A stretch of 64,000 nucleotides of DNA, taken from assembly GCA_029258885.1 (NCBI GenBank), contig JAPDJW010000002.1:352001-416000 (forward strand). Direction: 5' to 3'. Numbering within the stretch: position 1 is the first letter of the stretch; each line of letters opens with the position of its first letter. The stretch is from Thermoproteota archaeon (lineage in GTDB: Archaea; Thermoproteota; Thermoprotei; Thermofilales; B9-G17). The translations under genes were made by a program, and so were the position numbers. Of the stretch, positions 7,988-25,686 are shown in pieces. The notes beneath the pieces are model-generated. The model was given only the letters and a program-made list of their open reading frames with translations, made no database searches and was not told where the DNA came from.

Positions 7988-8854
7988 CTAGCTCCATATT
8001 GATTCATAGTCTTCCTTAAGCCTTTTTCTTGTAATATGAGTATATACCTGCGTAGTCTTAAGACTTGCATGGCCCAGAAGTTCCTGAATTTCTCTAACAT
8101 CCATACCGCGGCTTAGAGCAAAAGTTGCAAAACTATGTCTCAAAATGTGAGGGGTAACTTTCTTCTTTAGGCCAGCTTTTAAGGCTATCCGCTTAAGCCT
8201 CCTTTCAATGGTAACATAGTTTAGCTTCCCCTTCCTCCCCTTCAGCAAGTATTCATCCTGATCTCTCCTCCTTATCATCTTCCTGAGGAATTTCTCGGTT
8301 CTCCTATTGAAGAAGACCTCCCTCTCCTTTCCTCCCTTACCGTAAACTCTAATGCTCCTCTCTCTTAGATCTATATCCTTGATCTTTATGTTAACCAGCT
8401 CGCTTACACGGATACCCGTAGAGTAGAGGAGCAAAATAATGAGCTTATCCTCCAGGCTTTCAGCCGCCTCGAGAAGCTTCAAAACCTCCTCATAAGTGAG
8501 GAACCTCGGCAGAACCTTAGGTCTACGCGGATACTCAAACTTCTTAAGCGGCTCAGTTATCTCATGGTACTCGAGAAACCTCTTAATCGCGACAGCAGCA
8601 GTATAGAGGCTCTTCTCACTGTAGCCGTTTTTCCTTAAGTAAGCTAGAAATCCATCAATATCCTGTATAGTCACCCTCCTAACATCTTTTCCATTTAAGT
8701 ATCTTAAAAATCTACTAATAATGCTCCTAAAAGTTCTTATAGTTTTAATAGATTTATTTCTAGCCAATAAGTGATCGATATACTTCTCTAAAAGCTTCTC
8801 ATTAGCATCCATAGCTGTTCCTATACCACTAGACTTAGAACTCATACCTAACAC
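7988..8854 (-). CDS. xerA: Chromosomal tyrosine recombinase XerA
   Basis: N-terminal SAM domain; STGIRVSEL, GKGGKER, TPHILRHSFAT, IQELLGHASLKTTQVYTH. Confidence 0.88.
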   Translation of the reverse strand: MLGMSSKSSGIGTAMDANEKLLEKYIDHLLARNKSIKTIRTFRSIISRFLRYLNGKDVRRVTIQDIDGFLAYLRKNGYSEKSLYTAAVAIKRFLEYHEITEPLKKFEYPRRPKVLPRFLTYEEVLKLLEAAESLEDKLIILLLYSTGIRVSELVNIKIKDIDLRERSIRVYGKGGKEREVFFNRRTEKFLRKMIRRRDQDEYLLKGRKGKLNYVTIERRLKRIALKAGLKKKVTPHILRHSFATFALSRGMDVREIQELLGHASLKTTQVYTHITRKRLKEDYESIWS

Positions 8855-12972: not shown

Positions 12973-13797
12973 CTACTTTCCAGAAATTTTATCAAGAATA
13001 GCTGGCCTAACTATATCTCCGGTGGCCTTTAAAACCCAAATCCCTTCCTCTCTAGCCCTTTCTATCAGATCATGCATAGCAAGCGATACATAGATAACGG
13101 GAATAATAGTCTTCCTCACCTTTTCCGGATAATTAAGCTTAAGCTTTTCGATCTTCCTTATAAGCTCATCGACAAGAGACCTACCAGCTCTAACACTCAC
13201 CTCACCTATAATGCAAACGTCATCGGATACTCCATAAATGTTTATCTCAATTCCGGGAAGTACAAGCCTATACAAATTAACGTCTAGACCAAGCTCCCTA
13301 AGCCTATACTTGACAACCGACAACCCCTCATCCTCAATATCCAACGTAAGCTTCTCAAGCGTACGCTCAACCCTAGACAACCTATTACTGAGACTCTCAA
13401 TCATCCTATTGAAGTCTTCTCTCAGTCTTATCTGCTCTTTCCTCATTTCATTGAATTCCTCTCTTAGCCTTATTTGCTCCTTTCTCATCTCGTTGAAGTC
13501 TTCTCTCAGCTTTATCTGCTCCTTTCTTAGCTCTTCAAAGCTTTTCCTCATTTCATTGAAGTCTTCCCTTAGCTTTATCTGCTCTTTCCTCATCTCCTCA
13601 AAGCTCCTCCATAGCTTTATCTGCTCTTTCCTCATTTCGTTGAATTCTTCCCTTAGCCTTATCTGCTCCTCCATTAGATCGTCTAGTCTCTCAAGTATCT
13701 CTCTCATACCGATGTATCCGGCTACCGCATACCTAAATTCCTTATCCTCCTCAAGTAACCTTAGTATTTTTTCCTTAAGCTGACGCATACCTCCCAA
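12973..13797 (-). CDS. Archaeal heptad-repeat coiled-coil protein with C-terminal PD-(D/E)XK-like domain (DUF3782-like family)
   Basis: DKEFRYAVAGYIG N-terminus, (EQIxLRE[DE]FNEMRK)n repeats, C-terminal EINIYG...IGEVS nuclease-like motif. Confidence 0.7.
   Translation of the reverse strand: MGGMRQLKEKILRLLEEDKEFRYAVAGYIGMREILERLDDLMEEQIRLREEFNEMRKEQIKLWRSFEEMRKEQIKLREDFNEMRKSFEELRKEQIKLREDFNEMRKEQIRLREEFNEMRKEQIRLREDFNRMIESLSNRLSRVERTLEKLTLDIEDEGLSVVKYRLRELGLDVNLYRLVLPGIEINIYGVSDDVCIIGEVSVRAGRSLVDELIRKIEKLKLNYPEKVRKTIIPVIYVSLAMHDLIERAREEGIWVLKATGDIVRPAILDKISGK
13408..13668 (-). repeat. Coding tandem repeat, about six 42-bp (14 aa) units plus one 21-bp half unit
   Basis: Residues 44-130 of the 274-aa ORF; near-identical DNA units such as tttatctgctctttcctcat. 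Confidence 0.85.
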
Positions 13798-15268: not shown

Positions 15269-15296
15269 TAACGTTACGTAACGTTATATAACGTTA
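15269..15296. promoter_or_regulatory. Three copies of the palindrome TAACGTTA at 10-bp period; probable operator overlapping a TATA-like TTATATAA
   Basis: Copies at 15269, 15279 and 15289; 35 nt upstream of ATG 15332. Confidence 0.55.
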
Positions 15297-15331: not shown

Positions 15332-15430
15332 ATGGCTAGCATTGCAGAGCTGATAAGGAAGGGTGAGGGAGAAACCATAGAGTTTAAGAGAAGCCTAGCC
15401 GAGCTTAGAGAGATAGTTGAGACTAAGTAA
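15332..15430 (+). pseudogene. 5' fragment of a Schlafen/AlbA_2-HATPase-wHTH gene, cut by the integrated element
   Basis: MASIAELIRKGEGETIEFKRSLAELREIVET(K*); ExxxxEFK is the AlbA_2 N-terminal motif; continues in frame at 24454. Confidence 0.9.
15413..15425 (+). repeat. attL core ATAGTTGAGACTA
   Basis: Identical 13-mer at 24454-24466; encodes IVET in both halves of the split gene. Confidence 0.92.
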
Positions 15431-15481
15431 ACGGATGTGTTGAGATAGCTTTTTATAGAACCGGATGCGAAAACTTAGCTC

Positions 15482-16864
15482 GTGATGGGGGCTACGAAAT
15501 CTCAGGTTTTAGAGGACTTCCTGAAGCTCTATTCGGATAAGACTAGTACTCCAAAGACGTACAGGTACCTCCTAGAGATATTTTTCAAGATGGCGGGAAC
15601 TACGCCTGACGATTTTGCTGAGATGGTGAAGCAAGATCCCGAGAAAGCAAAGAACTTATGCTACGATGTCCTTCACAGGATGCAGGTGGAGAAGGTGAGG
15701 GATAAGCAGAAACTGAGGGGAGGGGGATATTCCCCGAAAACTATAACGAACGCTATGGTGGCATTAAACCAGTTTCTCAGCTTCCTCAACGCTGGGTTCA
15801 GGGTCAAGGTGAGGGGGATTAAGCCTATTCCTGTAAATCTAGACTACATCCCCTCCATCGAAGAGATCGAGATATTAATCTCTAAGGCTAGGTTCGAGGT
15901 TAAGCCTATAATAGCATTGATAGCTTTCTCTGGAATGAGAATAGGAGACATCTTAAAGCTGAGGTATAAGAATATAGCTGGCGACATAGAATACATTCCC
16001 GAGGAGAAAAAGTATAGGGCTAAGAGGCTGCCTGCTAAGATCATAGTATTTCAGGAAAAGACTGGGAGACCGTACGTTACCTTCATGGGCTCGAAGTGTT
16101 GTGGAATTCTCACTACTTACCTCAACGACCTCGTTGTAAGGAGGGGGAGACCTCTCGAGGACGAGGATAAGCTGTTCAAGCTAACCTACCAAGCTTTCAT
16201 TATGGCCTTTATGAGGCTCGTCAAGAGGTGTAGCATTCAAGTTCCTTCGATCAAGAGGCTCCGTCCATACTCTCTTAGGAAATACTTTAGGCTACACGTC
16301 TCTAAGCTAGGCGAGGAGACGGCTGAGTATTTGATGGGGCATGTCCGGGGGATAAATTCACTTACCGCTACCTACACGGGGCTACGTGACTTAGATCGCC
16401 GCGCGGTAGAGGAGCTCAGGAAGAGGTTTGCTGAAATACTCCCTGAACTTGAAGGAACTGCGTTCATGTTCAAGGAGGAAGTAGAGAAGCTACATCGGCA
16501 ACAGCAGGAAGAGCTGGAGAGGCTACGAAGGGAGGTCGAGTACTTGAGGGAGGCTCATAACAAGCTCCTCAAAATTCTCACGTGGGATGTCTTAGAGCCC
16601 CACGACCTGAAGAAGATATTCAGCTTCGCCTACGAGATAGCTGGCAAGAGGCTCCGTGAAACGTACTTGAAAGAGGACGAGGAACGGGTGAAAAGGGATT
16701 TTGAGGATGCGGCTAGGGTCGTAGCTAGGAGTATTGAAACTATGAAGGAGAGGAAATACGTTATTGCAAGAGGGGAAGCAGATCTCCTCAACTACCTCGA
16801 AATAGGCTACGAGCTAGTGAAGGAGCTGTCTGGAAACAGGTTTCTGCTCAGGAGACCAAAGTAG
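15482..16864 (+). CDS. Tyrosine integrase (intact, not SSV-type split) with C-terminal coiled-coil extension
   Basis: FSGMRIGD (R), QEKTG (K), PYSLRKYF (HxxR variant), YLMGH, TATY (Y); TTTTATAG box at 15451. Confidence 0.9.
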   Translation: MMGATKSQVLEDFLKLYSDKTSTPKTYRYLLEIFFKMAGTTPDDFAEMVKQDPEKAKNLCYDVLHRMQVEKVRDKQKLRGGGYSPKTITNAMVALNQFLSFLNAGFRVKVRGIKPIPVNLDYIPSIEEIEILISKARFEVKPIIALIAFSGMRIGDILKLRYKNIAGDIEYIPEEKKYRAKRLPAKIIVFQEKTGRPYVTFMGSKCCGILTTYLNDLVVRRGRPLEDEDKLFKLTYQAFIMAFMRLVKRCSIQVPSIKRLRPYSLRKYFRLHVSKLGEETAEYLMGHVRGINSLTATYTGLRDLDRRAVEELRKRFAEILPELEGTAFMFKEEVEKLHRQQQEELERLRREVEYLREAHNKLLKILTWDVLEPHDLKKIFSFAYEIAGKRLRETYLKEDEERVKRDFEDAARVVARSIETMKERKYVIARGEADLLNYLEIGYELVKELSGNRFLLRRPK

Positions 16865-16942
16865 CTGGCTAGCAGAACCGAGACAAACATAAGCGTCAGG
16901 CATTCCAGAAAATGGAATTTTGGAGGATTTGAGCTAAGTAAA

Positions 16943-17393
16943 ATGCGAATTCACGAGGCATTAAAGGAAACAGCTCATGGAGAGGAAGGGGATGTATGCT
17001 TTCAGGATCCCCGTCTCCGGATCGAGGGATCTCCCCGACGTCTTTGCAGTAGACAGCTACGGGAAAGCCGTCTACGCCTTCGAAATAAAATCTACCACGA
17101 GGCGGGTGGTGAAGGTGAAGAGGAAGCAGATCACTAGACTGCTCCGCTTCTGCAAAGCTTTCGAGAGGATAGCTAAGACTGCCGCCCTCCTCGCAGTGTA
17201 CAGCTACAGGCTGAGGCGCTGGTTCGTCTGGGAGGTAGACAAGTCGGCTCCATACTACTCTGAGGCGGTGATAGTGCTAGATTTCCAGAACTCGGGGGCA
17301 GTAGTGAGGAAAGGCGATTTTTTAAATCGGGGGATCTATAGCGAAATGTTCACGAAGCTCCTGAATCCCAAGCGTGGGAGTTTTCAGCGGTAA
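16943..17393 (+). CDS. Hjc-like Holliday junction resolvase (PD-(D/E)XK); probable +1 frameshift near 16963-16965
   Basis: G-MYAFR-IPVSG...LPDVFA...FEIKST. Removing one A joins MRIHEAL from ATG 16943 and restores the E-x10-G spacing of Hjc. Confidence 0.75.
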
Positions 17394-17458
17394 TACAGAC
17401 AGAATTCTAAAACTTGGTTTTCGGCTGAAAATTCCCCTTCCTTCAAATCCTCTAAAAC

Positions 17459-17740
17459 TCAGCGGCGGTAGTAGTATTCCTCGCTCTCGGGTTGCCTCCC
17501 GAAGATAGCTGAGAGAACTACCCAGAGGAAGAGGAAGATGAACAGGTACGGGAGCCCGGTGTAGACGAAGGAGTCGACGATGCTCTTTATGCTGTTGGCG
17601 CTCGCCTCCCAGCGGGTTCCGCTGACGTTGAAGAGCGGGAGGATCTGCGTGTCGATGACGTTGTAGTACACCATGTCGATGAGGTAGTAGAGCACTGAAA
17701 ACATCAGCACGACGAACATTAGGACGGCGATGATCCTCAC
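17459..17740 (-). CDS. Two-TM hydrophobic protein; putative minor capsid protein, paralogue of 20725-20991
   Basis: Hydrophobic helix - NVSGTRW loop (N-x-S sequon) - hydrophobic helix; AGGTGA RBS. Confidence 0.6.
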   Translation of the reverse strand: MRIIAVLMFVVLMFSVLYYLIDMVYYNVIDTQILPLFNVSGTRWEASANSIKSIVDSFVYTGLPYLFIFLFLWVVLSAIFGRQPESEEYYYRR

Positions 17741-17749
17741 CTAAATCAC

Positions 17750-20623
17750 CTATTTGCCCCTCTTCTTCCTCTTCTTCCTCCTCGAAGCTTTCTTCAGCCT
17801 CCTCGCTTCGCTCCTTATGATCTTCTCGGGAGTCAGCCACTTGCTGAGCCACTTGTCCCACTTCTTCAGCAGTGAGAAGCTGAAAACTGCTCCCCCTCTC
17901 CTGAGCTTGAAGGGCGGAGGGGGTAGCTTGAACGATGGAGGAGGCTCGAAGTCTCCTAAGTCTCCAACAGAGATTAGCTCCTCTACTTGAGCTTCTACTT
18001 CTCCCACCACCTCGTCTATTTCAGCAAACACGTTAGTTTCGAGTTCAGTTTTCTGAAGCGAGGTGAGGCTAACTTTAGGAGTTGGGAAAAAGGCGTATTC
18101 CTCTGCGCTCACGCCTCTAACAGCAGGTACGGGTCTCCTAACTTTCTTCTTCCTCTTCTTCAGCTCTAGCTCTAGCTTAGGTATGGAGGAAATAACATCC
18201 CTAAAACTAATTTCGGGTATTTCAGCGCTTATCTCAACCTGAATAGGCGGTATTTGTAGAGATAGAGCCTCCTTTGCCTCCCCCACTTCTACGCCTGATA
18301 TGGAGGGCAGAGCTACGACTGGAATTAAAGTTAGTTCTTTGGCCGCCTTAACCGATATAGGCTTTGCGCTAACTGGGAGGGGGAAGGTTACTTCCTTACC
18401 TAGCTCTGCGTACTTTGAGACAGGAAGTCCTCCAGTTAGCATTTGGGCGTATTCGTCTAGCTGTGCTAACGCCCACTTAGGTTTGAATGCAGTTTTGAAC
18501 GTAGTCTTCACTCCCTCCTCAGCTCCCAAGCCAGCAATCATAGTTTTAAATTCGAAGCTGTATCCTGGCAGAACTCCTTTCTCGAACTTAATCACATATC
18601 TAACGTCCTTTACCGCATCGTCTACATACTCTAAGAATCTGAGGGCGTCGACAGGCGTACCTCCTACCTTCCCCACTCCGGTGTAAATACCCTTTCCTCC
18701 CTCCCTCACGTACCTGTAGAAGCTCTTCCAAAAGTCTTCGCCCATCCAGACCTCTCCCACAGCGAGACACTTGCCGCTAAAGTACTTGTCGTAGGCTAGT
18801 TGAAGCTCAAGTGGAGAATATATCTTTTGAGCGGAAGCAAATTCTTCCGTTGGGAGACGAGACACCCTCCACAGCTTAACTTCTCCCTTGACGATGTCGT
18901 CTATTTCTCCACCTAACTTGATCACTCCCTCGTTGTCTTTTAAGAACTGCTTGTACACGTCTTCGGCTATGTCGTCCCAGTAGGTATATATTCTCCCCTC
19001 TGCTTCGACTAATATGTCTCCCCCTCCTGAGAGCACCCTACCCTTCATCCTAACCTCAGACGGGAACTCTCCGTAATATTTTGTCTCCCTGAGCAGTTTA
19101 TCTGTAATCTCGCCAACTTTCTCCTTAACGAAGGAAAAAACGCTCCTCCTACCGACAAAATAGCTTCCAATCCCCGGGAGCTCTCCCGTTTCAACGTAGT
19201 ACTGGTAGGTACTTGGGAAGACTTTTTTAGCGATTTTTCCTCCAACTTCTTTAGCCTTCCTCACTCCCTTCTCTACCATCGGGATTATTGGGTTCAGGAG
19301 CTCAGCTAGGAGTTCGCCTTGCACGTATTCTCCTAACGCTATTCCGGGAGCCATCCCCGGGTGTTCGACGAATATCGTGCCTAAGTCTAGCGGAACGTTA
19401 TAGCCGAATATAGTTCCCCACGACTCAAAGCTCCTGATAAATCCAGCAGGTATGTTAATGTAGGTGGACACAGGCTTCGGCTCATATCCCGCAAGAACCC
19501 TCGGGAGGTTCCACCAAGTTGCTAACGGAAGAGCAAACGTTAGACCCCATTTTGCTTCACTTCCAAAGGTCTCTCCAATCCAGGCGTCTATGCTTGCTCC
19601 AATGCTTGCTAGTAAACCGCTTATCGTCCTGTCCTGCGTGCTCTCCCGATATTTCTCTTCTAGCCATCGGTTGTATTCGTTTATTTCATTGTTTAAATTG
19701 TTTATGAAATTGTTGAACTCCTCTACCTCCTTATTGAAGGAAGAAGCTATCGCCTCATACTCGCTAACGTGTCTCTGTAGACTGCCAGCGACGTCTTCGT
19801 ACTCGCCCCTTATCTCCCTCATCCTGTTTATTATCCTCCTGTATTCTCTGACGTACTTCTCGTATTTCCTGCCGTATTTTGCGTTTAACTGCCGTAGCCT
19901 CGCTTCATATTCCTCCCTAGTTATCTCTCCGTTCTCGTACATGTCTTTAAGCCTCTCGTATTCATCCACTATAGACATTATCTTCTTCCTGAGAGACATC
20001 GCCTTATTGTATAGCCTCTCGTACTCCTTTCCTAAGCCTTCGAGCCTCTCCTTTTCACGCTTTATATTCTCCTCAAGAGGCTTGAGCTTAAACTCTGTCT
20101 CAGCTTTCTTGCTGACCAGCTCCCCGTACCATTCCATAGCCTTCCTCTTCTTTTCTTCTATCTCCTCAGGCGTAACTGGAGGCTCCTCTACGCCGGAAGG
20201 TATCTCTACTCTACTCCCTCCTCTAATCCTCAGACCCTCTTCCCTATATAAGTCCTCCTCAACCAAATCCTCTATCAAGTCTTCGGGCAGTTCTCCACCA
20301 ATTCCTGCCTCAGTTCCGCCGCCAACTTCACCGGAGCTTGCCTCCTCCTTTCCTCCAAATTGAGGCATCGTAGATGGAACAGGGGGAACGATATCGGACG
20401 GCACCTCGAAGCCCAACATATAGCTAGGAATGAAATCAACCGTAGAAACGTCTCCACTTTCCTTACGTCCTCCCCCGCCTTCCTCAGTCGCAGACGTAGT
20501 TGGATGCACAGTCACTTCTTCGTCTGGAAGGGGAACTTCCTCCTCCTTCCTCTTTTTCTCTTCTTCCTCTTCGCCTGCTCCCGCTGACTCCGCGCCTAAA
20601 GAGAAATATTCTTCGACGGGAAT
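17750..20623 (-). CDS. Large virion-associated-like protein (921 aa from GTG 20515; frame open to ATT 20623)
   Basis: Acidic N-terminus, ~180-aa coiled coil, apolar segment, Pro-rich then Lys/Arg-rich C-terminus; lies between the two capsid-like genes. Confidence 0.7.
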   Translation of the reverse strand: MPVEEYFSLGAESAGAGEEEEEKKRKEEEVPLPDEEVTVHPTTSATEEGGGGRKESGDVSTVDFIPSYMLGFEVPSDIVPPVPSTMPQFGGKEEASSGEVGGGTEAGIGGELPEDLIEDLVEEDLYREEGLRIRGGSRVEIPSGVEEPPVTPEEIEEKKRKAMEWYGELVSKKAETEFKLKPLEENIKREKERLEGLGKEYERLYNKAMSLRKKIMSIVDEYERLKDMYENGEITREEYEARLRQLNAKYGRKYEKYVREYRRIINRMREIRGEYEDVAGSLQRHVSEYEAIASSFNKEVEEFNNFINNLNNEINEYNRWLEEKYRESTQDRTISGLLASIGASIDAWIGETFGSEAKWGLTFALPLATWWNLPRVLAGYEPKPVSTYINIPAGFIRSFESWGTIFGYNVPLDLGTIFVEHPGMAPGIALGEYVQGELLAELLNPIIPMVEKGVRKAKEVGGKIAKKVFPSTYQYYVETGELPGIGSYFVGRRSVFSFVKEKVGEITDKLLRETKYYGEFPSEVRMKGRVLSGGGDILVEAEGRIYTYWDDIAEDVYKQFLKDNEGVIKLGGEIDDIVKGEVKLWRVSRLPTEEFASAQKIYSPLELQLAYDKYFSGKCLAVGEVWMGEDFWKSFYRYVREGGKGIYTGVGKVGGTPVDALRFLEYVDDAVKDVRYVIKFEKGVLPGYSFEFKTMIAGLGAEEGVKTTFKTAFKPKWALAQLDEYAQMLTGGLPVSKYAELGKEVTFPLPVSAKPISVKAAKELTLIPVVALPSISGVEVGEAKEALSLQIPPIQVEISAEIPEISFRDVISSIPKLELELKKRKKKVRRPVPAVRGVSAEEYAFFPTPKVSLTSLQKTELETNVFAEIDEVVGEVEAQVEELISVGDLGDFEPPPSFKLPPPPFKLRRGGAVFSFSLLKKWDKWLSKWLTPEKIIRSEARRLKKASRRKKRKKRGK

Positions 20624-20724
20624 CTACCTCACCCCCACAGGAGCTTCAAAAACACCACCTTAAATTGGAGAGAATTGTTCAAGGGAAAAAATGAAGTTAA
20701 CTCTTCCTGCTGGCTTACTCTTAC

Positions 20725-20991
20725 TTACTCCCTGCCTCCTCCGCCGGCGAGACCCATTAGAAGCCTAAGCATGAATGCCGCAATGATCACCATGAAGGCT
20801 ACGCCTAACAGCGTGAATCCCGTTTGAACGGCGGTTACGAAGTTGTTGTAGGGAGTAGCCCAGTTAGTCCCCGTCAGGTTCATCGAGCTCTCGACTTGTG
20901 CGGCGATGTAGAGGCCGATGACTACTGTACATATTAGTACTACGGCGGCAATCGCTATACCGGCAAGCCCAACCTGACCCTTCCTGTTCAT
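20725..20991 (-). CDS. Putative major capsid protein, spindle-shaped-virus-like helical hairpin
   Basis: MNRKGQ + hydrophobic helix - NLTGTNW loop (N-x-T sequon) - hydrophobic helix - GGGGRE; GAGGTG RBS. Confidence 0.62.
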   Translation of the reverse strand: MNRKGQVGLAGIAIAAVVLICTVVIGLYIAAQVESSMNLTGTNWATPYNNFVTAVQTGFTLLGVAFMVIIAAFMLRLLMGLAGGGGRE

Positions 20992-21325
20992 ACGCTCACA
21001 CCTCTATCTAATGAAAGAGGAAGAAGTATATCAGGGAAATTACATTCACGGCCTATTAGGAGCTAGCTTTGCGGATGCATAACGTTGATTATAATTATAT
21101 TATATTGCTGGGAGGGGTTTGTTATACAACGATCCAACGCCGCCCGCTTCCCCGTCGCCACAGCGGAAGAGGCGCAGAGCACAGAGGGGGAAGGTTTAGC
21201 GGAGAGGTCAGTCATCATCGTAGACTCAGGGAGGGGGTCGAAGTCATCGGTATGATACATCAAATCCCCTACGTTGCGGCGAAAGTGAAATTATCCCTTC
21301 CTCATCGGAGGAAATCCGCCGAGTT

Positions 21326-21697
21326 CTAGAACTCCATCAGCCTCTTAAACTCGTTAGCTGGCAGAATTATAAAATCTTTACCAGCATATTCTGGCGGTAG
21401 ATACTTAAGTACTTCTGCATACTTGTACTTACCTTTCTTTGTAACGAGCTTCGCCCTCACCCTCCAGACTTTCATCGAGCCATCCTTCACTTTCAGCCCA
21501 ATAGGCTTCTTTATCCACTCCTTAACTTCCACTAAAATCTGGTCAGTCCCCTTAACCTCCTTCACGGTGGCATTTACCGCTTTGAACTTATCCTCAAGCA
21601 CTTCATAGACCTCTCTATCCATTATCAGAACTACGGGATCATGTGTGTAACTTATGTAACGTGTGTAACGTTGAAGTAAATGTTTTCTATTTCTCAT
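21326..21697 (-). CDS. Element hypothetical protein; C-terminus weakly resembles a DUF2080/swapped-hairpin domain; real start may be MDREV
   Basis: KLVTKKGKYKYAEVLKYLPPEYAGKDFIIL pattern; downstream of and co-oriented with the helicase. Confidence 0.5.
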   Translation of the reverse strand: MRNRKHLLQRYTRYISYTHDPVVLIMDREVYEVLEDKFKAVNATVKEVKGTDQILVEVKEWIKKPIGLKVKDGSMKVWRVRAKLVTKKGKYKYAEVLKYLPPEYAGKDFIILPANEFKRLMEF

Positions 21698-21742
21698 CTT
21701 ATTTCCTCCTTCAAGCCATATCTACGTCCAAATCAGCCCAAT

Positions 21743-22315
21743 AAATTTGCATTAATTTGTATTGCAAATTTTCTATTTGCATTAATTTGTATTGCAAATT
21801 TTCTTATCTCTTTTTACGTATTTCAGCTCCGATTCTAGCTGGTATGGAAATTTGCAAATTTGCATAGAGGTAGTAGTTAAAGTCCTTCCACGCCGCTGGC
21901 GGTGCGGTAGCGGCCTCACAGTTAAATGAATAATATACTCTCCTCCCTGCTTCTCAATTTTGAAGCGGCTACCTCTGTATTTCTCTAAGAACTCTTTTAT
22001 ATCGGGCTTACTAAATCCAAATTCACTCTCCAGAAACTGGACGAACTCCTTTCCGCTAATTCTCCCTCCCCGCTCTCTAATAAACGCTTCAACCTCTTCA
22101 GCCACAACCTCATAAACAAGATCGTTAAAGGACACCTTTTCTCCCGTTATGGGGTCTACGTATTCTCCTCCAGCCATCTCCCTAACTTTACTTATATCTC
22201 TATGCAAATTTGCAAATTTCCTAATCAGCCCTTTAATGTACTGAATAACGCCTGATACGTCATCTAAATTTGCATTACAACCAAATGCGAATTTTTCTTT
22301 CTCTTTTTGCAAATT
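21743..22315. repeat. Iteron-like cluster (12 exact ATTTGCA/TGCAAAT hits, a perfect 30-bp tandem duplication); putative replication origin
   Basis: 30-mer ATTTGCATTAATTTGTATTGCAAATTTTCT at 21745 and 21775; further hits at 21850-21864, 22203-22217, 22268 and 22308. Confidence 0.7.
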
Positions 22316-23581
22316 GCTCGGAAACTCAGAGACTAGTTTATATGCGGGTCTGTATATGTTTCCCCTCCTACCTCCTCTACCCTCTTTAATCAGGTACCCT
22401 TTATCCACTAAGTCTTCCAGCTTACCGTAGATCGTTCTCCTGCTGTATCCCAGCTTCTCTCCTACAACGTCGAAGACCTGGTTGACGGTAACTCCTTCTC
22501 CGTTTTCGGAACATAAATCTAGGACGACTTGAAGTATGTATCTTTCCTGTTTGGTTAGCTCGAAAATTGAGTGCTCCAGTGCATTATAGCCCAGCCTTAA
22601 AGCAATAGCCAAATCCACCAAATCCGCTCTATCCCTTAAACTCTCTGGCTTCTGGAAGTATCTGCAAATAGCTATTTGCTTTATTAATCCTCCAAGTTTC
22701 AGCGGATACCTCCTGCTCTCAGATCTTTCAGAGGGGATCAAATCCTTCAACTCAGTTGCATAGGGAATTATTGGGTCAACGTCAACCGTAGCTATAATCC
22801 TGAAAGCCTCCTGCCAAACCTTCAGCTCCTTTGCGTCGTGTGGGAGTACATCTTTCTTTCCCTCTAAATGTTTGAGCCACACCTCGATGACCTCCTCTGT
22901 GAATTTGGGGTCGCTAGACAGTTCAATTCTCCACATCCCGCTTTTGAGAGCTGAGCTAATTCTACGTACGTTCGTTGTGGTTATTATCCCTTTAACTGGC
23001 ATTTTCACGACGGCTGTCTCCATCTGCTTTGTTTTCGGGTTCATGTAGGCGTACTCTGAGATGATTCCTCCATCGCTAGTCCTCATCAGTCTGAACTGTC
23101 TCTCCATCTCTCCTACAACTAAATCTATATCAGGGATATACAGTATATCTGCCTCCTTGAGTTCCTCTGAATATCTCATCGCGGCTGGCGTAAAGTAGCC
23201 TCTCTCTATACACTTCACAGCTTTCTTCAAGAGGAACAGAGACATCCTAACCATGCTGTCCTTTCCAGTTCCAGGCTCACCCACAACCTGGATTAAGGTG
23301 ACATAGCCCCTCTTGACAGCCATCAAGAGTATTGGAAGTAATCTCTTGTTGGCCTCCTCTCCTAATATGAAGCGTGGTTTATTCAGCTCTGGAAGTACAA
23401 AGCCATAGCTAAATATTTTTCCCAACTTATAGAAGAAGTCTGGAGACTTAAGCAACTCCTTCGCCTCAGATTCGAGTTCCTTCGCCTCAGATTCGAGTTC
23501 ATACTCAGTCATAAATTCTTCTAGGTCTCCCTCTAACTCCTTACTCTCCTCGCCGTCCTCTACAACCTTACCTCTCTTCAA
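21782..23581 (-). CDS. MCM-like AAA+ ATPase with wHTH; putative replicative helicase/initiator
   Basis: ILGEEANK, Walker A GEPGTGKD, IITTTN sensor-1, ESRRYP region, wHTH LGYSRRTIYGKLEDLVDKGYL. Confidence 0.72.
   Translation of the reverse strand: MKRGKVVEDGEESKELEGDLEEFMTEYELESEAKELESEAKELLKSPDFFYKLGKIFSYGFVLPELNKPRFILGEEANKRLLPILLMAVKRGYVTLIQVVGEPGTGKDSMVRMSLFLLKKAVKCIERGYFTPAAMRYSEELKEADILYIPDIDLVVGEMERQFRLMRTSDGGIISEYAYMNPKTKQMETAVVKMPVKGIITTTNVRRISSALKSGMWRIELSSDPKFTEEVIEVWLKHLEGKKDVLPHDAKELKVWQEAFRIIATVDVDPIIPYATELKDLIPSERSESRRYPLKLGGLIKQIAICRYFQKPESLRDRADLVDLAIALRLGYNALEHSIFELTKQERYILQVVLDLCSENGEGVTVNQVFDVVGEKLGYSRRTIYGKLEDLVDKGYLIKEGRGGRRGNIYRPAYKLVSEFPSNLQKEKEKFAFGCNANLDDVSGVIQYIKGLIRKFANLHRDISKVREMAGGEYVDPITGEKVSFNDLVYEVVAEEVEAFIRERGGRISGKEFVQFLESEFGFSKPDIKEFLEKYRGSRFKIEKQGGEYIIHLTVRPLPHRQRRGRTLTTTSMQICKFPYQLESELKYVKRDKKICNTN
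23457..23500 (-). repeat. 21-bp tandem duplication encoding ELESEAK twice
   Basis: ttcgcctcagattcgagttc at 23460 and 23481. Confidence 0.85.
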
Positions 23582-23888
23582 TCAAATTCACCTCCACAGA
23601 GAACTTCTGACGGAGAAATCGGACGACCTCCACTCCCCTCTCAGTTAAATAATTATAGGTGGCAGGAACCCTTAAGCTCGGATGCATTCTCCGAACCCTA
23701 AACACAAGCCCAGCTTTCTCTAACTGCTTTAGGTAATAGCTTACTTCCCGTCCGCCGAGGAGATTACTTATCTCGCAGGTGTAGAGCGGCTTGTTGGTGA
23801 AGTATAGACAGAGCAGTATCTCTAAGTTCCGCTTACAAAAAACTTTATTAACACGCTCAGCGAACTTCTTTATAAAGTAAGTATTCAT
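23568..23888 (-). CDS. Winged-helix DNA-binding protein of the element
   Basis: EISNLLGGREVSYYLKQLEKAGLV...YNYLTERG wHTH pattern. Confidence 0.75.
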   Translation of the reverse strand: MNTYFIKKFAERVNKVFCKRNLEILLCLYFTNKPLYTCEISNLLGGREVSYYLKQLEKAGLVFRVRRMHPSLRVPATYNYLTERGVEVVRFLRQKFSVEVNLIEER

Positions 23889-23967
23889 ACTATCACCTCC
23901 TGAAGTTCTTCTTTCAATTGGTTAGAATTTGTTCAAATACGGGAAAATTGAAACTTAAACTGCCTTC

Positions 23968-24237
23968 TTATTCCCCTTCCTCACCTTCGCCTTGATTTCC
24001 AGCCACCCTTTTCGCAAGTTCCTCGAACTTCAAGATGGAAATTTTGATGTTCCTCTCCTTCGGCTCACATCTAATGATGGCGAGGTCTCCCTTTTCAAGG
24101 TTTAGAGCTTTCGCTACCTCCATAGGAATTGTAACAGCGTAGCAGGTTCGCAAATACAATATCCGCCTGACGTGTAGCACTTTACCACCTTTAACACAGC
24201 CTTTCAATTGGAATAAATCTCGACTTAACTTCCTCAT
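23968..24237 (-). CDS. AbrB/MazE-like swapped-hairpin regulator of the element
   Basis: YAVTIPMEVAKALNLEKGD motif. Confidence 0.8.
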   Translation of the reverse strand: MRKLSRDLFQLKGCVKGGKVLHVRRILYLRTCYAVTIPMEVAKALNLEKGDLAIIRCEPKERNIKISILKFEELAKRVAGNQGEGEEGE

Positions 24238-24265
24238 AACTTAGTTATTAGTTTACTAAACGGGA

Positions 24266-24273
24266 TATATAAA
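24266..24273 (-). promoter_or_regulatory. TATA box (TTTATATA) of the leftward regulator-helicase operon
   Basis: About 30 nt upstream of ATG 24237; a TTAGT-tt-ACTAA dyad (24248-24259) lies between the box and the start. Confidence 0.55.
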
Positions 24274-24453
24274 ATTAGCGGTGGATGGCAAAAGTGAAAT
24301 TGTATTTAAATTTTCTGGTTCGTGAATTTCCCCTCCGTTTCTCTGGATATTGGATGTTTCCCTCGTTGAAAGCGGCTTGGATCAGCTTTATTTCTGCCGC
24401 GTCCTGTTCTTGTTTCTGGTTAATTCTAAAACTAGCTTTACGTTTTTGAACGC

Positions 24454-24466
24454 ATAGTTGAGACTA
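24454..24466 (+). repeat. attR core ATAGTTGAGACTA
   Basis: Identical to 15413-15425. Confidence 0.92.
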
Positions 24467-25686
24467 TATGTGCATTTTCTAATACACGTGGAGGGATAGT
24501 TCTTGTTGGAGTTAACGATAAGGGTGAAGTCGTAGGAGTCGATGTTAGCAGGAGTACTATAGAGAATCTGGTTTCCAGGATAGCTAGGGAGACAAACCCT
24601 AGGATATATCCTGAGGTGGAGGTTGTAGAGTTTAACGGCAGAAAAGTTATTGTTATAAGGGTTTCCGAATGAACGGATAAGCCAGTATTTGCCTTCGGCG
24701 TAGCCTACAAGAGGGTTGGGAAAAGCAATCTTAAAATGGATAGGGATGAGATACTTAGGCTTTTCAGAGAGTCCCGAAGGATAAGCTTTGAAGACGAGAA
24801 AATATGTACTATAAGTGAGCTCGACTACGGGAAAATTAAAAGCTTTATTGAGAGAGCTTCCGCGTATAGAAGAGCTGTGCTACCCAGCGACCCGAAATCG
24901 GTTCTAGATAACCTCGGCATGTTGCTAAATGATCACATTAATATCGCTGGTCTCCTAGCTTTCGGCAGAAATCCTCAGAAGTATTTTCCGTATGCGTGCA
25001 TAAAGATAGGGAAGTTTGTATCGGGGAGTATTATTTTTGAAAAGGAAATTAAGGGAGATATTATCGAACAGATCGAAAGGGCATATGCTGAGGTATTGAG
25101 TCTTATAAAACGAGAAATTAAGGTTAAAGGATTAAAAAGAGAGGAGGTCTACGAGTATCCGCCTAAGGCTTTGAGGGAAGCCGTAGTTAACGCTGTAGCG
25201 CACAGGGATTACTCGATTAAATCACCTATCTATATAAGGATATACGAGGACAGGATAGAGTTTGAAAATCCCGGAGGATTAATTGATTTAACAGTTGAAG
25301 ACTTAAAGAAGCCTCATAAATCAATACTAAGGAACCCTAAGATAGCGGAAGTACTATATTACTTGGGCTTCATAGAGAAGTGGGGCATAGGTACACTAAT
25401 GATTATTAAAGAGTGTATTTTAAACGGAAACGGCGAGCCAGTATTCGAGTCCAATGGTAGCTTTAAACTTACAATCTTCTCAAGGTACTTTAGCTCATTA
25501 GATCCTGTGGAGCGGAAAATAATTGATTACATTGGGGAGAAGGGCGTAGTTGAAAGAAGGGAAATTCAGGAGCATCTTAAGCTAGCTGAAAGCACGGTTA
25601 GGAAATACCTAATTAAGCTTAGGCTAAGAGGCTTAATAGTTAAAATTGGAAGGGGAAAGAGGACGGTTTATAAGCTTGCGCTTTAA
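24454..25686 (+). pseudogene. 3' part of the Schlafen/AlbA_2 + HATPase_c_4 + wHTH gene, with in-frame TGA at 24670-24672
   Basis: IVETICAFSNTRGGIVLVGVNDKG...VSE*TDKP...YKRVG runs in frame into ORF 24736-25686 (ALREAVVNAVAHRDYS, ENPGG, RNPKIA, EKWGIG, C-terminal wHTH). Confidence 0.9.

Follow-up and report, generated by a model that had tools for sequence, protein, structure and literature searches.

What leads an integrative element to a protein-coding gene of defence type, and does its choice of that gene serve it beyond offering a place to recombine? The question is raised by a 64,000-nt stretch of DNA (contig JAPDJW010000002.1, positions 352,001 to 416,000; hereafter the window) from the 2.1-Mb genome of a hydrothermal-vent archaeon. 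Here, a 9,041-bp element carrying a tyrosine integrase interrupts a gene that encodes a Schlafen (SLFN_AlbA_2) domain, a GHKL ATPase domain and a winged helix-turn-helix (wHTH) domain. Our reading, to which we assign a probability of about 0.62, is that this dispensable defence-type gene is a lineage-specific target chosen by its sequence.

The element is bounded by a 13-bp direct repeat, ATAGTTGAGACTA, whose copies at 15413-15425 (left attachment site, attL) and 24454-24466 (attR), both on the + strand, were defined by repeat and join analysis; 9,041 bp is the length between these core copies. They form the sole exact pair of this sequence in the window and in the whole genome, and a 13-mer was shared by chance in 17 of 200,000 random pairs of 60-bp windows. 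The G+C content of the element exceeds that of its flanks. Deletion of 15413-24453 fuses the two pieces of the Schlafen gene in frame. The 5' piece (15332-15430, + strand), which has 27 codons ahead of the core and as it stands encodes a 32-aa stub, is joined to the 3' piece (24454-25686, + strand; codons 28-437, delimited by domain search and allele comparison), so that 27 and 410 codons add up to 437, with the core within codons 28-32. The same join is found in nature. A contig from a public assembly (L060) carries an empty allele with a single core copy exactly at the predicted position; 5 of its 1,314 nt are different in the joined gene, the sole change at the protein level being Arg instead of a stop at codon 100. 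Removal of one repeat copy with the intervening DNA thus yields a natural empty allele, which is the mark of an integrative element.

The element supplies no replacement 5' end for the Schlafen gene: inspection of the reading frame revealed a TAG codon (24433-24435, + strand) ahead of the 3' piece, and no start codon occurs between this TAG and attR. A search of the window for tRNA genes found none. The first-pass annotation of this DNA had already claimed an in-frame join of about 437 codons, the lack of a new 5' end, a Schlafen/AlbA_2 protein gene rather than a tRNA gene as the target, and disruption of that gene by integration; the first two of these claims were confirmed, and the other two are supported. 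The small dyad that it had pointed out in the core is indeed present; we prefer to regard it as the middle of an attachment (att) site with an 11-6-11 layout (arms and spacer), located 72 bp upstream of the integrase gene. This layout resembles that of dif sites as given in PMC8371274; identity with the host's dif site is unlikely, since the site lies inside a patchily distributed gene. A 23-nt run of identity between the host gene and its orthologue spans the att site; we rejected it as a sign of exceptional conservation, as two other runs are equally long or longer.

Several elements use this site. A complete element of 6,273 bp (L002) has the same attL and attR and an integrase with 99.3% identity; its cargo retains the genes for the 88-aa protein and the wHTH regulator, while a serine resolvase and a helicase-like gene replace the remaining cargo. 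A third cargo variant (L062) was found at the same site, and the integrases of all filled alleles are at least 99% identical. Because three cargo variants with near-identical integrases use it, the site appears to be a primary one and not an accidental one-off, and for this lineage the insertion at a one-off secondary site that the first-pass annotation had considered is not what was found. Empty and filled alleles probably coexist in populations. In run SRR6823442 the first base of one contig lies 30 bases ahead of the core's end, and that of another coincides with the first base of the core, which may reflect a break in a 31-mer assembly graph caused by both alleles. Contig ends in assembly ERZ584659 likewise fall where such a break would be expected, and its record names give a coverage of 22.5 to the flank and of 3.8 to the element. 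Another allele (L061) retains attL and a truncated integrase; an unrelated gene comes next, and the rest of the locus is gone or rearranged, although a misassembly near the contig end could produce the same picture. Searches with an attB (empty-site) pattern in genome contigs and with an attP (element-site) pattern in viral contigs yielded no match.

The sequence of the site may account for its use. When the 1,723 sites of the genome that share this 6-bp spacer were ranked by their match to the attP arms, attB tied for first place with the site at C2:207685, so sequence alone can explain the choice of target. To see how far this choice extends, integrase homologues were inspected with a Schlafen profile. 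Among 33 integrase loci, a Schlafen gene was present only beside the 99% lineage and at none of ~25 distant ones (29-55% identity and below), nor did any of 29 distant phylum-level loci lie beside one. tRNA genes were located nearby at 4 of the 33 and 14 of the 29 loci (18 in total). The expectation that integrase homologues would be found repeatedly in AlbA_2 genes therefore fails beyond a single lineage. It should be noted that many of the closest integrase loci are short contigs without a readable att site. Single-protein integrase scans of genome and viral contigs gave nothing, and a search of 120 genomes belonging to the class revealed no close homologue (E 1e-15).

Where sites of more distant homologues could be inspected, they were of other kinds. 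One integrase with 36% identity (L008) belongs to a 7.7-kb element with an intergenic 17-bp repeat 73 bp upstream of its gene, compared to 72 bp here; this complete element of the same integrase family (L008:6046-13752) lies beside a roadblock/small-GTPase gene cluster. Two integrases (33-41% identity) begin ~120-130 bp away from the genes for rfcS and ornithine carbamoyltransferase, which are intact and divergent. The locus of a 55% homologue (L005) contains a match to 11 of the 13 core positions at the same offset, with no adjacent Schlafen sequence. This match is overlapped by a perfect 12-6-12 palindrome (L005:722-751) ~70 bp upstream of the integrase, a possible attP or resolution site, in a contig that begins with sequencing-adapter sequence.

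The interrupted gene itself belongs to a recognizable class. Its intact product, as read from the natural 437-aa allele, consists of SLFN_AlbA_2, a GHKL domain (HATPase_c_4, PF13749) and a wHTH, which is the composition of the kinase-HTH (helix-turn-helix) class of prokaryotic Schlafens (pSlfn), named Schlatpase-HTH in bioRxiv 10.64898/2026.05.29.728809. The nuclease motif Ex4ExK, formed by E12, E17 and K19 in agreement with the pattern Ex4(E/D)xK, is conserved in 44-45 of 46 homologues, and this motif has been shown to be catalytic in prokaryotic Schlafens (PMC13056530). It lies wholly to the left of attL, and the insertion at codon 28 severs it from the remainder of the protein. The predicted structure (predicted local distance difference test score, pLDDT, 88) matches DIP2311 across its length, and at the domain level mammalian SLFN11/12/13/14 and a histidine-kinase ATPase. 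Upstream of the gene there are three 8-bp palindromes with 10-bp spacing (15269-15296, no strand assigned), three copies of which also precede the 80%-identical orthologue in L057; by analogy with toxin-antitoxin autoregulation, they probably constitute an operator, likely for the protein's own wHTH.

An orthologue with 86% identity bears the signature of purifying selection (155 synonymous versus 55 mostly conservative changed codons) and is located in a dense toxin-antitoxin cluster. The corresponding region (L057:5279-17442) contains at least 10 toxin-antitoxin-type pairs (VapBC, HicAB) around the intact gene, which retains an unoccupied copy of the att core. In the genome studied here, the target copy has surE on one side and a peptidase gene on the other. 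Members of the family occur patchily, in 6 of 120 genomes of the class. Four further copies are present in the host, of which two are intact and two broken; the core is absent from all four, and overall 2 of the 10 gene copies read at the DNA level contain it. The broken paralogues (C6:64972-66243 and C6:72876-73487) are Schlafen-GHKL-wHTH pseudogenes with frameshifts or deletions. This family turns over fast in this host.

The first-pass annotation had suggested that the choice of att site may itself be an anti-defence strategy: the Schlafen protein would be an abortive tRNA nuclease that senses the element, and integration would be selected since the lysogen is then left without an active nuclease. 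The conserved Ex4ExK motif cut off by the insertion, the modelled fold resembling the nuclease domains of SLFN11/12/13/14, the toxin-antitoxin surroundings of the 86%-identical orthologue and the retention of the site through cargo swaps are all consistent with this proposal, and a streptococcal phage that integrates into a CRISPR locus provides a precedent (PMC13492144). However, only a single integrase lineage targets the gene, the presence of the core in 2 of 10 copies means that the family as a whole is no target, and two intact paralogues persist. Moreover, in one experimental panel that included kinase-like fusions, protection was limited to the DUF262 and Ig-like ones (PMC13056530), and excision would restore the gene just as the element replicates. 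With Schlafen genes occupied by one integrase lineage, the comparison does not support anti-defence as the reason for the choice of site, and we consider this explanation unlikely. The stronger version, in which integrase specificity evolved to knock out an aborting Schlafen nuclease, so that counter-defence would reside in the attachment site and the natural knockout would reveal an antiviral role for the largest untested Schlafen class, seems to us a little more doubtful still.

Alternatively, a single ancestral insertion at a secondary site could have been inherited vertically, with modules exchanged in place, the true primary target (e.g. a tRNA gene) being elsewhere. This would fit the identity of at least 99% among the integrases of all filled alleles and the preference of distant homologues for tRNA genes; in addition, the host flanks look recombined, which bars the counting of independent insertions. 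Nevertheless, relative to this genome, L061 (filled) and L060 (empty) have six differences of the left flank in common; the two states of the site are thus interspersed across haplotypes. The state of the site has therefore changed more than once, whether through integration, through excision or through homologous recombination. In none of the assemblies fetched was a second site detected for this integrase, and the genome contains no better match to attP. We consider a single insertion improbable.

The 3' piece of the gene also holds a nonsense codon. Allele comparison placed a TGA at codon 100 (24670-24672, + strand), where other alleles have AGA; Arg is encoded in L054-L056, L060 and the orthologue, and also in alleles P0051-P0053, P0173 and P0174. 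A further 316-aa protein (P0175) is known at the level of a protein call and not of DNA. Selenocysteine or programmed readthrough was rejected, because homologues carry R, G or S at this position. Among the alleles read, the TGA appears to be private to this genome, or else an assembly error. The reconstituted gene described as intact in the first-pass annotation is thus joined in frame, but this genome's copy is closed by the stop, and excision cannot restore it. A regulated switch (active lysogeny), in which controlled excision would restore the Schlafen gene to the benefit of the host, is very improbable. In its favour, excision would leave a precise join, the sister alleles read, attR-linked L055 among them, have an open 3' piece, both states of the site coexist, and bacteria offer precedents in comK, sigK and spsM (PMC13492144). 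Against it, the TGA rules it out in this genome and no positive evidence for it came from sister strains; the L061 integrase is truncated with the remainder of its locus gone or rearranged; the element has retained replication and capsid-like genes and exchanges cargo as an autonomous element does; and the gene is redundant and patchy.

The lineage-specific, sequence-driven use of a dispensable gene can be put together as follows. The full-length integrase would recombine at a short 11-6-11 site ~72 bp upstream of its own gene, presumably within the 6-bp spacer. Integration splits the gene between the catalytic motif and the rest and provides no new 5' end; the host can probably bear this, the gene being accessory and intact paralogues being present. 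To judge from the assemblies, elements with the same integrase and ends exchange their replication and cargo modules while continuing to use the site, and both empty and filled alleles are carried in populations. The silenced gene would then have decayed here by gaining the nonsense codon (if this is not an assembly error), which would make the break permanent. The target would thus be set by sequence match and dispensability, and the loss of a defence function would be a side effect, or possibly a side benefit. Three points weigh against this account: the ranking of attB is partly circular, as attP and attB co-evolve whatever drives target choice; for the nearest other integrases (49-55%; RLE77526 and RLE89382 among them), short contigs prevent the att sites from being placed; and the intact gene is under purifying selection, so its loss may not be neutral.

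The remaining gene content is that of a small mobile genome. The integrase (15485-16864, + strand; 459 aa; phrog_1, E 4e-20) is intact, not split by the att site, and has the catalytic set R152, K192, Y262-x-x-R265, H286 and Y297. It is followed by an Hjc-type Holliday junction resolvase (16977-17393, + strand; PF01870, E 3e-12) found in this cargo variant only. All other genes lie on the - strand. They encode a 93-aa hydrophobic protein without a family match in domain and profile searches (17459-17740); a 921-aa protein with a coiled coil, a SHOCT motif and a hydrophobic stretch (17750-20515), for residues 290-900 of which a search found no relatives; an 88-aa two-helix hydrophobic protein common to all variants (20725-20991); a 123-aa protein without a family match (21326-21697); a 599-aa P-loop ATPase with a wHTH (21782-23581); a 106-aa wHTH regulator present also in L002 (23568-23888); and an 89-aa AbrB/MazE-type DNA-binding protein (23968-24237). 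Near-identical proteins are deposited as 'Thermoprotei archaeon'.

The 599-aa protein clusters with PF27228 at 0.97-0.98, a family annotated on 10-35% of the cluster members, and is a probable replication protein by its sequence. Repeats at 21743-21880 and 22187-22294, together with a 43-nt inverted repeat, occur at the 3' end of its gene and are a candidate replication origin. The 88-aa protein is a candidate spindle-virus-type capsid protein, as a lead only: its nearest named neighbours are the fusellovirus VP1/VP3 and His1 capsid clusters (atlas scores 0.87 and 0.83, below significance), and its profile match to VP1 of 7xdi (E 0.59) is likewise below significance. Fold searches with its model were uninformative, returning generic helical hairpins only, and the phage collection searched with the 88-aa and 599-aa proteins contained no match. 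We take the element to be a probable spindle-virus-like provirus, or else a plasmid-like derivative. When 179 recovered host CRISPR spacers were compared with the element and its relatives, only chance matches of 13-18 nt were found.

Two features of the left flank were also recorded. Upstream of the att site, at a distance of 6.5 kb, is a gene for a XerA-like tyrosine recombinase (7988-8854; PF00589, E 5e-42), and a DUF8196 gene (12973-13797) contains 21-bp coiled-coil repeats whose number varies among strains (L001, L061).

The locus offers a cleanly mapped archaeal att site in a protein gene, of which empty, filled, nonsense and truncated alleles occur in nature. For studies of intragenic archaeal recombination it provides an attP/attB pair that is ready for use and has a short core. 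Its near-isogenic alleles represent a Schlafen-GHKL-HTH gene, a member of a common class. If the gene does restrict the element, this would be a rare archaeal case of counter-defence through the choice of integration site; the value of the locus is as a test system, and the comparative test does not support that striking interpretation.

With regard to known systems, the target is identical in architecture to the kinase-HTH pSlfn/Schlatpase-HTH proteins, with the same SLFN_AlbA_2, GHKL (PF13749) and C-terminal HTH, the Ex4ExK motif and a patchy spread. This class makes up 19% of pSlfn, and no stand-alone defence activity has been demonstrated for it (PMC13056530; bioRxiv 10.64898/2026.05.29.728809); in the panel of the former study, which included kinase-like fusions, protection came only from a DUF262 and an Ig-like fusion. 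The element shares with spindle-shaped viruses (fusellovirus VP1/VP3, His1) a small two-helix hydrophobic protein, an integrase, an ATPase, small regulators and a genome below 10 kb, but its integrase is not of the split SSV type and sister variants lack the large membrane protein. In bacteria, integrations that impair immunity or switch genes include phage AP1.1 in a CRISPR locus and those in comK, sigK and spsM (PMC13492144). Like these, the present integration is site-specific, abolishes a function of the host and could in principle be reversed; for the bacterial cases experiments demonstrated benefit or regulation, whereas here the effect is read from sequence and this allele can no longer be restored.

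The closest parallels are archaeal. In contrast to SSV-type (suicidal) integrases, the att site here lies outside the integrase gene and leaves the 459-aa protein unsplit. The integrase resembles those of pNOB8 type, which remain whole after integration, and has the active site R..YxxR..Y given for the Sulfolobus NOB8H2 plasmid, a likeness based on the active-site pattern as quoted in PMC5495485; unlike theirs, its target is not a tRNA gene. The 13-bp core is short compared to the 29-69 bp of crenarchaeal elements (PMC6563490). Among thaumarchaeal elements, 14 of 68 reside in protein genes, in 3'-distal regions (PMC6563490), and other archaeal elements with non-tRNA targets are BJ1, Msmi-Pro1 and NitGar-E6 (PMC8371274); according to this recent review, recombination at such intragenic archaeal sites is untested. 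The element described here has in common with the archaeal non-tRNA elements a tyrosine integrase, a short att repeat in a protein gene and an empty site that can be checked in relatives. It differs from the thaumarchaeal 3'-distal cases in that its site is at codon 28, the catalytic motif is removed and no repaired copy is provided, and from the reported archaeal non-tRNA elements (PMC6563490, PMC8371274) in that its target is a Schlafen-family gene. Our literature search for integration into defence genes, which was incomplete in coverage, returned no Schlafen case. Within the literature searched, no other 5'-proximal, disruptive and repeatedly used att site in a Schlafen gene was found.

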